64,000 nt of DNA from Eledone cirrhosa (GCA_964016885.1 OZ024745.1:30814001-30878000); one strand, 5' to 3'. Counted from the stretch's first letter, positions 11,120 to 61,884 are shown. A program made the numbers and translations. Notes: generated from the letters alone by a model not told the origin.

Positions 11120-11328
11120 TAACCACAGTAAGAAAGGTACTCAATACATAGCAGAGTATAAATATTTAATATAGAAATAGCTTCTACAGGACTAGAACTG
11201 TTTCATTCGGGAGAATGAAGCCTCCTGATGATTTCTCCCGAATGAAACAGTTCTAGTCCTGTAGAAACCATTTCTATATTAAATATTTATACTCTGCTAT
11301 GTATTGAGTACCTTTCTTACTGTGGTTA
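11120..11328. repeat. ~95-bp-arm inverted repeat of a pLTR-like fragment
   Basis: 11120-11215 is the reverse complement of 11233-11328 apart from 2-3 mismatches. Confidence 0.9.
11220..11268 (+). ncRNA. Type I hammerhead ribozyme, helix I partly mutated
   Basis: GCCTC-CTGATGA-T-TTC tccc GAA-T-GAAA-CAG ttctagtc CTG-TA^GAAAC (GAAGC in other copies at ~14485-14526, 49235-49278 and 52869-52900). Confidence 0.7.
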
Positions 11329-34242: not shown

Positions 34243-34566
34243 TGTGTGTGTGTGTGTGTGTGTGCGTGCGTTTGTTTGTTTGTGTGTGTATAAATACCGC
34301 GACACAATACTGTTCATTGTTACGGGCGTGCTAGGCAGACTTCTTACAGCAGTCCCAGTAACAAATACAAGGACACCACCAGTAATCACATCAATATAAG
34401 TCAATGGAATTAAACAAACTACACAGACGAAACGTGTATGAGTGAAACAGACAGTCGGTGATATCGTAGACAAACTACGACCACCCAGTGTAGGTATCTG
34501 TAGAATTATATAGGAAACAAAACGATTTTTATTGGAATCGAAGTTATATATATATATATATATATA

Positions 34567-37500
34567 TAAATGTAAGTATGCATGTATACGTACATACATA
34601 TATGTATACAGACGTACAGTAGCATGCACATATATATATATATATATACATATATACATACATATGCATACAGGTACACATACATATATGCACGTATCAG
34701 TTTAGCGGCGCTTATTATAACGTCGCTTTGTTCGTTTGTAAACAAACTGAAAAGCCTGAATTTATGCCATACGGTGTTAAGGCAACCACGTCACCTTTTT
34801 GTTCAACACTGACACAGGAACGATGTACTAGTTTCAAGCTTGTTAGCTATCATCAGCACCGTTTACCCATCTGCCAGATAGTTGAACGTTCGAAAGTATA
34901 TACTTTCCTTATGAAAATTAACGGCTGAGCAGCCTAATTTGCATATTGAGTGAGTTAAATCGGTCAGGCATACCGAAAACGATAAATTGAAACAAAATGA
35001 AAACGAAATTTCATTTCTCACTCTTAGTATGGCACTTACTTAAATGTAAGTATGCATGTATACGTACATACATATATGTATACAGACGTACAGTAGCATG
35101 CACATATATATATATATATATACATATATACATACATATGCATACAGGTACACATACATATATGCACGTATCAGTTTAGCGGCGCTTATTATAACGTCGC
35201 TTTGTTCGTTTGTAAACAAACTGAAAAGCCTGAATTTATGCCATACGGTGTTAAGGCAACCACGTCACCTTTTTGTTCAACACTGACACAGGAACGATGT
35301 ACTAGTTTCAAGCTTGTTAGCTATCATCAGCACCGTTTACCCATCTGCCAGATAGTTGAACGTTCGAAAGTATATACTTTCCTTATGAAAATTAACGGCT
35401 GAGCAGCCTAATTTGCATATTGAGTGAGTTAAATCGGTCAGGCATACCGAAAACGATAAATTGAAACAAAATGAAAACGAAATTTCATTTCTCACTCTTA
35501 GTATGGCACTTACTTAAATGTAAGTATGCATGTATACGTACATACATATATGTATACAGACGTACAGTAGCATGCACATATATATATATATATATACATA
35601 TATACATACATATGCATACAGGTACACATACATATATGCACGTATCAGTTTAGCGGCGCTTATTATAACGTCGCTTTGTTCGTTTGTAAACAAACTGAAA
35701 AGCCTGAATTTATGCCATACGGTGTTAAGGCAACCACGTCACCTTTTTGTTCAACACTGACACAGGAACGATGTACTAGTTTCAAGCTTGTTAGCTATCA
35801 TCAGCACCGTTTACCCATCTGCCAGATAGTTGAACGTTCGAAAGTATATACTTTCCTTATGAAAATTAACGGCTGAGCAGCCTAATTTGCATATTGAGTG
35901 AGTTAAATCGGTCAGGCATACCGAAAACGATAAATTGAAACAAAATGAAAACGAAATTTCATTTCTCACTCTTAGTATGGCACTTACTTAAATGTAAGTA
36001 TGCATGTATACGTACATACATATATGTATACAGACGTACAGTAGCATGCACATATATATATATATATATACATATATACATACATATGCATACAGGTACA
36101 CATACATATATGCACGTATCAGTTTAGCGGCGCTTATTATAACGTCGCTTTGTTCGTTTGTAAACAAACTGAAAAGCCTGAATTTATGCCATACGGTGTT
36201 AAGGCAACCACGTCACCTTTTTGTTCAACACTGACACAGGAACGATGTACTAGTTTCAAGCTTGTTAGCTATCATCAGCACCGTTTACCCATCTGCCAGA
36301 TAGTTGAACGTTCGAAAGTATATACTTTCCTTATGAAAATTAACGGCTGAGCAGCCTAATTTGCATATTGAGTGAGTTAAATCGGTCAGGCATACCGAAA
36401 ACGATAAATTGAAACAAAATGAAAACGAAATTTCATTTCTCACTCTTAGTATGGCACTTACTTAAATGTAAGTATGCATGTATACGTACATACATATATG
36501 TATACAGACGTACAGTAGCATGCACATATATATATATATATATACATATATACATACATATGCATACAGGTACACATACATATATGCACGTATCAGTTTA
36601 GCGGCGCTTATTATAACGTCGCTTTGTTCGTTTGTAAACAAACTGAAAAGCCTGAATTTATGCCATACGGTGTTAAGGCAACCACGTCACCTTTTTGTTC
36701 AACACTGACACAGGAACGATGTACTAGTTTCAAGCTTGTTAGCTATCATCAGCACCGTTTACCCATCTGCCAGATAGTTGAACGTTCGAAAGTATATACT
36801 TTCCTTATGAAAATTAACGGCTGAGCAGCCTAATTTGCATATTGAGTGAGTTAAATCGGTCAGGCATACCGAAAACGATAAATTGAAACAAAATGAAAAC
36901 GAAATTTCATTTCTCACTCTTAGTATGGCACTTACTTAAATGTAAGTATGCATGTATACGTACATACATATATGTATACAGACGTACAGTAGCATGCACA
37001 TATATATATATATATATACATATATACATACATATGCATACAGGTACACATACATATATGCACGTATCAGTTTAGCGGCGCTTATTATAACGTCGCTTTG
37101 TTCGTTTGTAAACAAACTGAAAAGCCTGAATTTATGCCATACGGTGTTAAGGCAACCACGTCACCTTTTTGTTCAACACTGACACAGGAACGATGTACTA
37201 GTTTCAAGCTTGTTAGCTATCATCAGCACCGTTTACCCATCTGCCAGATAGTTGAACGTTCGAAAGTATATACTTTCCTTATGAAAATTAACGGCTGAGC
37301 AGCCTAATTTGCATATTGAGTGAGTTAAATCGGTCAGGCATACCGAAAACGATAAATTGAAACAAAATGAAAACGAAATTTCATTTCTCACTCTTAGTAT
37401 GGCACTTACTTAAATGTAAGTATGCATGTATACGTACATACATATATGTATACAGACGTACAGTAGCATGCACATATATATATATATATATACATATATA

Positions 37501-37836
37501 CATACATATGCATACAGGTACACATACATATATGCACGTATCAGTTTAGCGGCGCTTATTATAACGTCGCTTTGTTCGTTTGTAAACAAACTGAAAAGCC
37601 TGAATTTATGCCATACGGTGTTAAGGCAACCACGTCACCTTTTTGTTCAACACTGACACAGGAACGATGTACTAGTTTCAAGCTTGTTAGCTATCATCAG
37701 CACCGTTTACCCATCTGCCAGATAGTTGAACGTTCGAAAGTATATACTTTCCTTATGAAAATTAACGGCTGAGCAGCCTAATTTGCATATTGAGTGAGTT
37801 AAATCGGTCAGGCATACCGAAAACGATAAATTGAAA
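34567..37836 (-). mobile_element. Left arm: ~6.9 tandem copies of a 474-bp hammerhead-containing unit (ribozyme on minus strand)
   Basis: Exact 474-bp period (ORF track repeats at 34582, 35056, 35530...). HHRs at 34819-34863, 35293-35337, 35767-35811, 36241-36285, 36715-36759, 37189-37233 and 37663-37707. Confidence 0.95.
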
Positions 37837-37888
37837 TTTGTTTCAATTTATCGTTTTCGGTATGCCTGACCGATTTAACTCACTCAAT

Positions 37889-37896
37889 ATGCAAAT
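37889..37896 (+). promoter_or_regulatory. Octamer motif ATGCAAAT, present in every 474-bp unit
   Basis: Perfect octamer starting 88 bp before CTGATGA. Context is conserved with 6847-6869. Confidence 0.45.
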
Positions 37897-37969
37897 TAGG
37901 CTGCTCAGCCGTTAATTTTCATAAGGAAAGTATATACTTTCGAACGTTCAACTATCTGGCAGATGGGTA

Positions 37970-38014
37970 AACGGTGCTGATGATAGCTAACAAGCTTGAA
38001 ACTAGTACATCGTT
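37970..38014 (+). ncRNA. Type I hammerhead ribozyme (representative of 12 copies)
   Basis: AACGGTG-CTGATGA-T-AGCT aaca AGCT-T-GAAA-CTAG-TA^CATCGTT. Helix I extends over 37946-38032 (ATGGG/CCTGT, CTGGC/GTCAG, GTTCAAC/GTTGAAC). Predicted cleavage after 38007. Confidence 0.88.
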
Positions 38015-40215
38015 CCTGTGTCAGTGTTGAACAAAAAGGTGACGTGGTTGCCTTAACACCGTATGGCATAAATTCAGGCTTTTCAGTTTGTTTACAAACG
38101 AACAAAGCGACGTTATAATAAGCGCCGCTAAACTGATACGTGCATATATGTATGTGTACCTGTATGCATATGTATGTATATATGTATATATATATATATA
38201 TATGTGCATGCTACTGTACGTCTGTATACATATATGTATGTACGTATACATGCATACTTACATTTAAGTAAGTGCCATACTAAGAGTGAGAAATGAAATT
38301 TCGTTTTCATTTTGTTTCAATTTATCGTTTTCGGTATGCCTGACCGATTTAACTCACTCAATATGCAAATTAGGCTGCTCAGCCGTTAATTTTCATAAGG
38401 AAAGTATATACTTTCGAACGTTCAACTATCTGGCAGATGGGTAAACGGTGCTGATGATAGCTAACAAGCTTGAAACTAGTACATCGTTCCTGTGTCAGTG
38501 TTGAACAAAAAGGTGACGTGGTTGCCTTAACACCGTATGGCATAAATTCAGGCTTTTCAGTTTGTTTACAAACGAACAAAGCGACGTTATAATAAGCGCC
38601 GCTAAACTGATACGTGCATATATGTATGTGTACCTGTATGCATATGTATGTATATATGTATATATATATATATATATGTGCATGCTACTGTACGTCTGTA
38701 TACATATATGTATGTACGTATACATGCATACTTACATTTAAGTAAGTGCCATACTAAGAGTGAGAAATGAAATTTCGTTTTCATTTTGTTTCAATTTATC
38801 GTTTTCGGTATGCCTGACCGATTTAACTCACTCAATATGCAAATTAGGCTGCTCAGCCGTTAATTTTCATAAGGAAAGTATATACTTTCGAACGTTCAAC
38901 TATCTGGCAGATGGGTAAACGGTGCTGATGATAGCTAACAAGCTTGAAACTAGTACATCGTTCCTGTGTCAGTGTTGAACAAAAAGGTGACGTGGTTGCC
39001 TTAACACCGTATGGCATAAATTCAGGCTTTTCAGTTTGTTTACAAACGAACAAAGCGACGTTATAATAAGCGCCGCTAAACTGATACGTGCATATATGTA
39101 TGTGTACCTGTATGCATATGTATGTATATATGTATATATATATATATATATGTGCATGCTACTGTACGTCTGTATACATATATGTATGTACGTATACATG
39201 CATACTTACATTTAAGTAAGTGCCATACTAAGAGTGAGAAATGAAATTTCGTTTTCATTTTGTTTCAATTTATCGTTTTCGGTATGCCTGACCGATTTAA
39301 CTCACTCAATATGCAAATTAGGCTGCTCAGCCGTTAATTTTCATAAGGAAAGTATATACTTTCGAACGTTCAACTATCTGGCAGATGGGTAAACGGTGCT
39401 GATGATAGCTAACAAGCTTGAAACTAGTACATCGTTCCTGTGTCAGTGTTGAACAAAAAGGTGACGTGGTTGCCTTAACACCGTATGGCATAAATTCAGG
39501 CTTTTCAGTTTGTTTACAAACGAACAAAGCGACGTTATAATAAGCGCCGCTAAACTGATACGTGCATATATGTATGTGTACCTGTATGCATATGTATGTA
39601 TATATGTATATATATATATATATATGTGCATGCTACTGTACGTCTGTATACATATATGTATGTACGTATACATGCATACTTACATTTAAGTAAGTGCCAT
39701 ACTAAGAGTGAGAAATGAAATTTCGTTTTCATTTTGTTTCAATTTATCGTTTTCGGTATGCCTGACCGATTTAACTCACTCAATATGCAAATTAGGCTGC
39801 TCAGCCGTTAATTTTCATAAGGAAAGTATATACTTTCGAACGTTCAACTATCTGGCAGATGGGTAAACGGTGCTGATGATAGCTAACAAGCTTGAAACTA
39901 GTACATCGTTCCTGTGTCAGTGTTGAACAAAAAGGTGACGTGGTTGCCTTAACACCGTATGGCATAAATTCAGGCTTTTCAGTTTGTTTACAAACGAACA
40001 AAGCGACGTTATAATAAGCGCCGCTAAACTGATACGTGCATATATGTATGTGTACCTGTATGCATATGTATGTATATATGTATATATATATATATATATG
40101 TGCATGCTACTGTACGTCTGTATACATATATGTATGTACGTATACATGCATACTTACATTTAAGTAAGTGCCATACTAAGAGTGAGAAATGAAATTTCGT
40201 TTTCATTTTGTTTCA

Positions 40216-40261
<46 letters not shown>

Positions 40262-42796: not shown

Positions 42797-42953
<157 letters not shown>

Positions 42954-43296: not shown

Positions 43297-43644
43297 TGTC
43301 CACAATGCGTCTGCCGGACACTGCCTGGTGGCGTTAGCCAGCAAGACAAGATCACAAACGAGGATGTGCTTGGAAGATCCATTGCCAACCGTCAACAAGG
43401 GCAAAAAGACAGAAGAATTCAGCTACCAGGGAATGTCCTACTGCAAAATCAACAACAAAATTTATAAAAATAACAACAACAACAACAACAGCAATGACAA
43501 CAACAAATACAATGGTAACAACAACAGCAGCAATAGCAACAACATCAGCAATAGCAATGATGTCAAAATCACAATAACAAGTGAACCTGTTTCCAGTAAA
43601 GAAACACATGATAAACAGAACTATACAAATATTAACTTCTCCTA

Positions 43645-44460
43645 TCCCCCCTCCTCACTTCACTGCCCTATTACAATCTAATAAGAACACCTCTACCTGG
43701 AGATTAACATGCTAGAAATAGCAACCAAATCTCCCCTCCTCACTTCACTGCCCTATTACAATCCAATAAGAACACCTCTACCTGGAGATTAACATGCTAG
43801 AAATAGCAATCAAATCTCCTCTCATCACTTCACTGCCCTATTACAATCCAATAAGGACACATCTACCTGGAGATTAACATGCTAGAAATAGCAACCAAAT
43901 CTCCTCTCATCACTTCACTGCCCTATTACAATCCAATAAGGACACTTCTACCTGGAGATTAACATGCTAGAAATAGCAACCAAATCTCCCCTCATCACTT
44001 CACTGCCCTATTACAATCCAATAAGAACACCTCTACCTGGAGATTAACATGCTAGAAATAGCAATCAAATCTCCTCTCATCACTTCACTGCCCTATTACA
44101 ATCCAATAAGAACACCTCTACCTGGAGATTAACATGCTAGAAATAGCAACCAAATCTCCCCTCATCACTTCACTGCCCTATTACAATCCAATAAGAACAC
44201 CTCTACCTGGAGATTAACATGCTAGAAATAGCAACCAAATCTCCCTCCTCACTTCACTGCCCTATTACAATCCAATAAGAACACCTCTACCTGGAGATTA
44301 ACATGCTAGAAATAGCAACCAAATCTCCCCTCCTCACTTCACTGTGCTATTACAACCCAACAAGGACACTTCTACCTGGAGATTGACATGCTGGAAATAA
44401 CAACCAAATCACTTCACCGTTCTATTACAATCCAACAAGGATTGCCTGGAGAATTGACAT
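43645..44460. repeat. 85-bp minisatellite, ~9.5 copies
   Basis: CACTTCACTGCCCTATTACAATCC recurs at 43741, 43826, 43911, 43996, 44081 and 44166, degenerating at the right end. Confidence 0.95.
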
Positions 44461-59982: not shown

Positions 59983-60585
59983 CAAATATGACTGGAAAGA
60001 ACTTGTGTATATGTATATTTGTGTCTCCGTGTATATATTATACAATCATTCATAATCTATTTACCAGTGTTTACGTAATAAGATTTACATTTATACGAGT
60101 ATATTTCTCTACATGTATTCTAATAACTTCGTATATATTTGAATAACTCTTATCTTTATATATTTCATGTTTCGTGTTTCTAGGGACAATCTTTGGAGTT
60201 TAGCAGCTGTCAAAACCAACATTTCAACTGTGTTATCATTGTTTTCTCTTGAGCCAAGCAAGTATAAAACTGGATGTAAATAGGACTTACACTAACCACC
60301 AATCACTCCTACAGCGACATCACTCTATTCCACATATATATTGAATTTGATAATAATATACTCATTGTTATGGTGGTCGCCTCACGTCATACATTGTTTT
60401 TGACGTCGTAACTCCTGCCGTGCTACAAATACTTCTCAAACATCGAATATATTTCTTCATCACTAAATCTTTTAAAAACATTTTTATCGAATAAATCGCC
60501 AACATTTTTGCCAAAGGATCTTGGACATGAGATTTTGGACTATCAATTATTTTAGTTTTAATAGTTTATATATAATTGATTCACT

Positions 60586-61732
60586 ATGAATCCTGAACAA
60601 AGACATATCCCAAATTTGCGTTGTTTTGATAACTCAAATACGGAGATAGCTTCCGGCAGTAAAGATACCAACCATTCTGTTGCATTACTATACTCTGGTA
60701 AACTATCATGTTTGTCAAGGAAAATATTCCGAAGGACGAAACTTCGTCAAGCCTTAAGCAAAAGAATTAACACTTCTAATCAAATATCCCGCAACTCATT
60801 TCATTTGTGTCTGCTGGTCTTTTTATATCTATTACAACACACTTCAGCGACAGAGTGTTCTTTCATGGATGGCAAATGTACTTATAACATACGTCTCGCT
60901 CCACCTCAACCGGCGGCAGAAGGATCTACTGGAGGCGGAGATCAATGTAAACCTTACGCCCCGGCAAATATGAGACAATTCAGTGGCACACAAGAAAGCC
61001 AGAATGATTACGCACAAAAAATGACAACTATAGTAAAAGATTTTGATGTCATTAAAGATGATCATGAAAATCGTATCAAAGAACTGGAAAACTATATTAG
61101 AAAAAGTTTATCTAGAGGCGAAGAATCCGACGTGATGAAAGTGGCCGGTAATATAAAAGAGAAGATCAGGCAAGGTTCCAGTTCTGAATCAGGTGGCGTA
61201 AACGAATACGGAGTAACCGGTATTAAATTTGACAATACTGAAGACAATTTGATTACAAAACTCCACAGGCAGTTTTCAGCGATACGAGAACTCAATCGAC
61301 AAAAATCACAGTCGTTACGCGTGATACATTACAGGTTGAACGAAACTCGCCAAAAGTTAACCGATACACAAAACAACCTGCTGTCGACCACAAATCAACT
61401 TTTACAAGCAGAAGAAACTCTAAATAATTTGCAAGATGACAAGTATATTTTACAAAACCAACTGAAAGACAGGAACGAGAGACTAGAGCGAGCTGAGAAA
61501 CGTGCAGATGCGTTAGAAAAGAAAAATAAAGAAACAGATGAGAAATTATTGACACTTATTCGATCTGAGAACCTTCTAAAAGAAGAAATGTACACGGCTC
61601 AATTTAAGCTGAACGAAACTGAAAAGTTGTTAGAAAACGCTCGAAATCAGTATCGCCAATTGGATGTAGATTTTGTTCGTCTTATTGGAGAAATCGGCAC
61701 AAGAGAGAAACAACTGAAACAGTGCTATAAAG
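60586..61732 (+). CDS. Large coding exon of a secreted or type II membrane coiled-coil protein (angiopoietin-like N-terminal architecture); downstream exons not seen
   Basis: Non-repetitive 382-codon frame. Hydrophobic FHLCLLVFLYLL, then ECSFMDGKCTYNIRL, then long heptad-rich K/E/Q/L region. Donor AAG|GTAAGA after 61732 (phase 1). Possible acceptor TTTCTAG|G at 60183. Confidence 0.8.
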
Positions 61733-61884
61733 GTAAGACATTCATAAATTTCACAACTAATTGTTTTCTTGCAGGCAGAAACTACGGTAACGCTGTAAAA
61801 TTGGTATAAAAACAGTGTGTGTATGTATGTATGTATGTATGTATGTATGTATGTATGTATGTATGTATGTATATATGTATGTAT

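Follow-up and report, generated by a model that had tools for sequence, protein, structure and literature searches.

A tandem array of hammerhead-motif units was analysed in a 64,000-nt stretch of the Eledone cirrhosa genome (GCA_964016885.1, OZ024745.1:30814001-30878000; this whole stretch is referred to as the window, and positions are counted from its first letter). The array (34567-40221, 5655 nt, 12 identical 474-nt units) is a single, very young insertion from an abundant family of non-coding repeats with a hammerhead motif, i.e. a retrozyme without long terminal repeats (non-LTR retrozyme), in its usual two-armed form. The perfect palindrome within the array is the standard insertion form of the family and not a special giant event; the locus is a clean, very young example, and the palindrome itself adds little beyond that.

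The explanation that best accounts for all the observations, and that we regard as fairly probable, is a retrozyme insertion mobilised by a Penelope-like element (PLE), with dual priming at fixed sites, probably on a circular 474-nt monomer, and joining of the resulting cDNAs. The proposed steps are as follows: a (TA)n tract is likely to have been cut in both strands by a Penelope-like protein with reverse transcriptase (RT) and GIY-YIG domains, and reverse transcription is likely to have been primed from both DNA ends on a single RNA, at two fixed sites separated by 59 nt. The template, probably a single circular 474-nt monomer, would have been traversed 6.9 and 5.0 times, and tail-only arms would arise where one RT stops at the site from which the other primed. 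Finally, the far ends of the two cDNAs are likely to have been fused; a microhomology of 1-5 nt is usual at this step, and the join at this locus is blunt. The most detailed version, to which we give an even chance, is that two Penelope RTs, starting from opposite sides of the break, circled one ribozyme-made and sometimes adenosine-to-inosine (A-to-I)-edited RNA with strand displacement, and so produced 12 copies in one event.

The array and its 474-nt unit

Unit positions were numbered in RNA sense, with U1 (window position 40163) being the base that opens the 59-nt tail. The perfect palindrome was confirmed in the assembly, with inverted arms at 35456-37836 and 37841-40221 and the centre TTGAAA-TTTG-TTTCAA at 37831-37846. 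As an earlier reading of the same DNA (the sequence-only reading) had described, the spacer is itself unit sequence (U45-48, sense orientation); the head-to-head join is blunt (overlap 0). The whole array exceeds the palindrome, it has a period of 474 with zero mismatches within either arm, and the ribozyme-sense strand of its 12 hammerhead cores (7 minus, 5 plus) is directed outward from the centre in both arms. The outer ends lie at U474 (left) and U59 (right), and the centre ends at U49 (left arm) and U45 (right arm). The predicted ribozyme cut falls after U215 and coincides with none of these four, which agrees with the earlier statement that neither the ends nor the centre lie at the cleavage site. 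The same reading placed both RNA-sense 3' ends at an ATTTA microhomology with the (TA)n flanks, and this had to be narrowed: ATTTA is not shared with the target, and the overlaps consist of TA or TAT (2-3 nt). Older subfamilies end in ..AACTTAT. The 59-nt tail starts inside the loop of a 7-bp hairpin and contains an 8-bp hairpin. Coordinates are collected in Table 1.

Table 1. Features of the array and of its target tract (window coordinates)
Feature	Coordinates	Strand	Remarks
(TA)11 target tract, left	34545..34566		From sequence; unique flank stops at 34544
Left arm, 6.9 units, 3270 nt	34567..37836	-	RNA-sense 3' end U474 (34567), 5' end U49; 7 hammerhead cores
Perfect 4766-bp palindrome	35456..40221		2381-nt arms, 4-nt spacer
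Spacer TTTG (U45-48)	37837..37840	+	Opening bases of right arm; blunt join
Right, tail-bearing arm, 5.03 units, 2385 nt	37837..40221	+	5' end U45, 3' end U59; 5 hammerhead cores
ATGCAAAT (U97) and TATATA (U139) motifs 5' of ribozyme, one set per unit	37889..37936	+	Region kept in sister family
Type I hammerhead motif, one of 12	37970..38014	+	Cleavage predicted 3' of 38007 (GUA)
T at U289 (family majority G)	38081	+	12/12 units, both arms
TA-rich long RNA hairpin, about U340-465	38132..38257	+	Predicted fold
59-nt tail (U1-U59)	40163..40221	+	Absent from the other outer end
(TA)n target tract, right	40222..40258		From sequence

The unit is non-coding, as expected of a non-LTR retrozyme: its longest Met-started frames are 40 aa (sense) and 76 aa (antisense), and it holds no open reading frame (ORF) with RT and GIY-YIG domains such as an autonomous Penelope-like element would carry. 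A type I hammerhead motif, known here from sequence, was found in 12/12 units (stem I of 7 bp, CUGAUGA, stem II of 4 bp with an AACA loop, GAAA). Its helix III has only 2 bp with a palindromic ACUAGU, and a short palindromic helix III has been reported from those metazoan type I motifs which act in dimeric form (PMC4209133). Rfam gave 0 matches in the window at gathering score; by E-value, HH9 was matched at 18.5 bits (E 0.07, under the gathering score of 52), and the other matches were sub-threshold, miRNA-like and on the TA hairpin. The RNA fold of the unit is strong (z -7.7), and the TA-rich long hairpin likely contributes much to it; the hairpin sites U380, U384, U392, U412 and U460 carry G in the unit of this locus and A in older copies. 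The ATGCAAAT and TATATA motifs resemble small nuclear RNA-type promoters, and we presume a promoter role for them.

A sister retrozyme family was observed inside a TA tract of the 474-nt family (L041:1215 (-) and 1963 (+), with a piece in L195:5900-6160). Its layout matches (tail hairpin, octamer, TATA-like box, hammerhead, two arms), the tail hairpin is conserved, as is the region of the octamer and the TATA-like box, and stems I and II are preserved via 3+3 two-sided (compensatory) changes.

Fixed ends, TA targets and the link to Penelope-like elements

About 11,400 ribozyme copies are present in the genome (11,441 matches for a word that spans the predicted cleavage site). For the junction of tail end and (TA), 850 exact matches were counted, next to 4626 read-through copies at that position, and the exact U474/(TA) junction occurs 260 times, so that the family consists of dispersed mobile copies with identical junctions, like other non-LTR retrozymes. 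The TA targets anticipated by the sequence-only reading for other arrays were thus found. For closer analysis, the first 80 of the 850 tail-end junctions were taken, all on contig C1 and picked by tail end. Two-armed, head-to-head insertions made up 65/80 of this sample, and inversions are therefore common in other arrays as well; the 15 one-armed loci (one stopping at an assembly gap) were left out of the centre statistics. Both arms were multi-unit concatemers in 15/61 loci.

The second end of the two-armed insertions lay within U464-475, followed by TA, in 61/65 loci (U468 in 11, U471 in 22 and U474 in 21), and 11 two-armed loci that were found by similarity and not by their end had the same end pair (judged by eye, one of the tails stopping at U52). 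Both ends are thus fixed, and permuted ends, which had been expected from priming at free points on a circle, were ruled out. Instead, the two fixed ends, about 59 nt apart, are a Penelope 'tail'. The notion of a giant version of Penelope-like inversions was likewise dropped as far as size is concerned, the same form being standard in the family; the kinship with those inversions held. As in non-autonomous elements mobilised by PLEs, one copy is inverted and truncated, the tail is one-sided and bounded by the two fixed ends, and the target is a microsatellite.

Penelope-like elements are described with an inverted 5'-truncated copy, a 30-40-bp one-sided tail and a (TA)n bias (PMC8557442). For the purified PAc protein, which is predicted to be dimeric, AT-rich DNA was cut and extended on both strands, and RT was started at two adjacent internal RNA sites that bound the genomic tail (PMC11167929). 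Coding GIY-YIG elements of the E. cirrhosa genome (L188, L192, L196, L193, L202) have the same layout of two arms, TA ends and one-sided tails (about 35-60 nt, estimated by eye), and RT plus GIY-YIG domains were assigned by Pfam for L188, L193 and L196. Together with the 65/80 insertions, this layout supports the earlier proposal that both strands of a cut (TA)n tract primed cDNA and that the products were joined head-to-head, and dual priming at fixed sites is very likely.

Two further observations were made on the coding elements. L188 and L193 are near-perfect palindromes of 3.3-3.7 kb, head-to-head in (TA)n, and L183:4309-7122 (-), L184:2988-5519 (+) and L185:1775-5062 (+) contain open frames (938, 844 and 1096 aa, respectively); with their RT matches and GIY-YIG genome match, the latter are candidate intact PLEs.

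Centres, template and rival explanations

The 5' (centre) ends of the sampled arms are spread over all phases of the unit. After exclusion of the 12/65 joins with inserted bases, an overlap of at least 2 nt was found in 30/53 clean joins, compared with a fraction of 0.18 in 20,000 simulated joins (p=3e-10), and 7/53 clean joins were blunt like the centre of this locus. The phase offset between the arms was at most 7 nt in 4/65 loci (2.1 expected, p=0.15); as this is a chance-level frequency, the 4-nt symmetry of the centre needs no special cause. A special fold-back origin of the centre was rejected as unneeded, and a path via the neighbouring hairpin would also require a 12-nt deletion. Tail arms of 55-67 nt were found in 10/65 loci, with 0.66 expected from the flanking density (p=2e-7, in a size window set post hoc). 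These arms end where the other primer sits, which argues that both primers were on one RNA. As a side observation, L107 and L134 are joined at an identical centre (U232/U263), where a 5-nt inverted repeat lies that is paired as a stem in the predicted fold of the RNA.

Array ends do not tell a circle from a multimer, and the variant pattern does so only in part. All 10 full units extracted at the locus are one haplotype, absent from the 80 sampled loci. The word with T at U289 (T289) has 19 matches in the genome, i.e. the 12 at the locus and 7 scattered over 6 other arrays, the other units of which mostly carry G at U289; no all-T289 source array was found elsewhere in the assembly by genome-wide word search. 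Repeated copying of one monomer is favoured because a linear multimer would have to come from a source of 12 units with T289 throughout, and the assembly contains none. The sequence-only reading had left the template as circular or multimeric RNA, and this pattern favours a monomer; given dual priming, a single circular monomer is the likely template of this locus. Of 25 other arrays with at least 3 full units, 15 consist of one repeated haplotype. C1498 was tried as direct parent of the locus and was ruled out: its tail-arm units carry A241T and 384A.

Among the changes fixed over all units of a locus, 9 sites show A>G and a single site T>C, compared with 9 and 12 among single-unit changes (Fisher p=0.02; site 378 was polarised by older copies). 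This excess suggests edited RNA founders, and A-to-I editing, a feature of coleoid biology, may be its cause. At L035, A>G accounts for four of the six fixed changes, including one at the cleavage nucleotide. This locus (G000:C3:12272016-12324183) is a 52-kb one-way array with 65 matches and G at the cleavage nucleotide, predicted to be a dead-ribozyme satellite, and it probably grew at the DNA level.

Several results weigh against the preferred account of PLE-driven dual priming on a circular monomer. No enrichment of 5' ends was seen around the ribozyme cut (3/130 near it), and multi-base deletions at the cut were seen at 2 loci, with 2 at a control site; ends or scars at the cut were consequently rejected for want of enrichment. 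The second priming site stopped 1/47 long tail arms (2.0 expected), and arm lengths, from which 4 complex or truncated loci had been dropped, are not clearly correlated (rho 0.13, p=0.33; without short tail arms rho 0.29, p=0.05). No autonomous partner sharing unit sequence (pseudo-LTR or tail) was found in 32 GIY-YIG loci drawn from 150 scored GIY-YIG matches (10,595 candidates), the unit-like matches in L195 and L196 being nested insertions. In the ribozyme, position 10.1-11.1 is U-U instead of the usual G-C and may entail weak cleavage. The A>G excess is not significant in the hairpin alone (7:1 vs 6:3, p=0.58), and slippage in TATG repeats could mimic it. Every unit is different in 7/25 arrays, two or more repeated haplotypes are carried by 3/25 (L084, L148 and L153), and a pattern of three units recurs in each arm of L084, which means that multimeric templates occur too.

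The last of these observations touch the strongest rival, which keeps PLE dual priming and puts in place of the circle a linear multimer of 12 or more units, read through from a source array that is homogeneous. It would make the circle unneeded, and shared haplotypes are mixed in L084 and L153 and the L084 pattern stands in both arms, as it would predict. A short palindromic helix III is thought to need dimers, and the U-U pair may weaken cleavage. The PAc protein accepts uncleaved RNA in vitro, and a multi-copy mRNA was proposed by the authors (PMC11167929). However, the assembly holds no other array that is T289 throughout, a master array for the L084 pattern was not found either (its marker has 20 matches), and a source with a private variant in each unit itself requires a monomer-to-array step; we consider this template unlikely.

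Growth in DNA is improbable. Here a short two-armed insertion, or a folded-back single cDNA, would have expanded to 12 units by slippage, unequal exchange or conversion, which would suit the near-symmetric 4-nt centre without microhomology, and the 52-kb array on C3 shows large and probably DNA-level growth within the family and suggests that such expansion also homogenises units. Yet a fold-back strand has no reason to halt exactly at U59, the fixed start of the family, the symmetry of the centre is only at chance level, and the inverted arms are identical including their unstable TA tracts, which vary among the units of older arrays.

An assembly artefact (fold-back reads, or repeat collapse and over-expansion) is very improbable. 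A perfect 4.8-kb palindrome is hard to sequence, the 12 units are perfectly identical, and no read contig bridging the centre was among those listed, which by itself proves nothing; but the left and right flanks of the array differ, the left flank (34300-34544) has a single match in the assembly, and both ends equal the biological ends of the family. Read evidence was taken from contigs of sequencing runs, and these contigs break at the TA tract and are hence uninformative on an empty allele; the palindrome is accordingly known from the assembly. A T289-bearing 59-nt contig had a depth of 205 and 179 in two runs, against 7.8 and 10.1 for the unique flank, and the ratios of 26 and 18 (18-26 copies) fit roughly the 19 assembled copies and not the about 8 expected if the locus had one unit, as the sequence-only reading had required of the read depth. 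The depth of the flank fluctuates between runs, with 3.7 in a third one, and a flank single-nucleotide polymorphism may lower the calibration, which also counts against reliance on these ratios.

The following observations were made beside the main subject. At L114 (G000:C1:184445921-184447808), a 7-nt deletion ending at the ribozyme cut is present in 5/5 units, the sole such array found in the genome. Runs of 15 other organism codes (X4-X11, X13-X20) contain 39-70% of the unit's words, and run X5 gave one unit contig with 1 difference in 248 nt at a depth of 5.6, whereas X4 yielded no contig; cross-contamination from a very high-copy repeat seems likelier than transfer, and these runs were not taken to show host range. 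No RNA run was among those listed with the unit, and run X12, in which pieces of the unit occur and the flank does not, was left out of the analysis. Elsewhere in the window, an open frame of 409 codons lies at 60580-61806 (+) and an 85-bp tandem repeat (9 copies, 95% matches) at 43644-44410. Other hammerhead-like motifs lie at 11225 (+), 49278 (-), 42916 and 43259 (+) and 6943 (+); those at 11225 and 49278 resemble a motif near coding PLEs (L185, L188, L192), and those at 42916 and 43259 form a pair with a spacing of 343 nt.

Known systems and significance

The 474-nt family resembles the metazoan non-LTR retrozymes, which are non-coding tandem units with a type I hammerhead motif each and thousands of dispersed arrays, and for which PLEs have been proposed as mobilisers and circular RNA (circRNA) as template (PMC7229834; 10.64898/2026.07.22.740005). 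Expression, cleavage and circles were shown in those reports, whereas the present family is known from sequence. In the accessible text of both, the two-armed head-to-head form, fixed ends, one-sided tail and TA targeting were not met: supplements aside, 'inverted' is absent from PMC7229834 and stands once, in a reference title, in 10.64898/2026.07.22.740005, and 'tail' is absent from the latter. No description of two-armed retrozyme insertions was found in the literature searched, which covered few subscription journals and no supplements.

Penelope-like elements share with the family the inverted copy, the tail on one end, the two fixed RT starts, the AT-rich target and the hammerhead motif (PMC8557442; PMC11167929). 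The family differs from them in its 474-nt unit without ORF, its 59-nt tail and arms that can both be multi-unit concatemers.

L1 twin priming offers another comparison. There, a single RNA is primed by both ends of the target, synthesis of the first cDNA halts at the second priming site, and microhomology is found at the join. The family is alike in its tail-only class and microhomology, and unlike in that both priming sites are fixed, poly(A) is absent and the arms repeat one sequence many times.

For animal retrozymes, copying into DNA by an RT acting on circRNA, the RT probably coming from a PLE, has been proposed (PMC7229834) and is not shown in the literature consulted, and the PLE insertion steps beyond priming were described as awaiting validation (PMC11167929). 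The present family supplies hundreds of young insertions, fixed RT starts and a substrate defined at 474 nt, its genome also has PLE ORFs that look intact, and retrozyme copying and the post-priming steps of PLEs are therefore directly testable. If the most detailed version of the account is true, the more than 850 insertions would be a genomic record of rolling-circle reverse transcription, in which RNA edits were made heritable.

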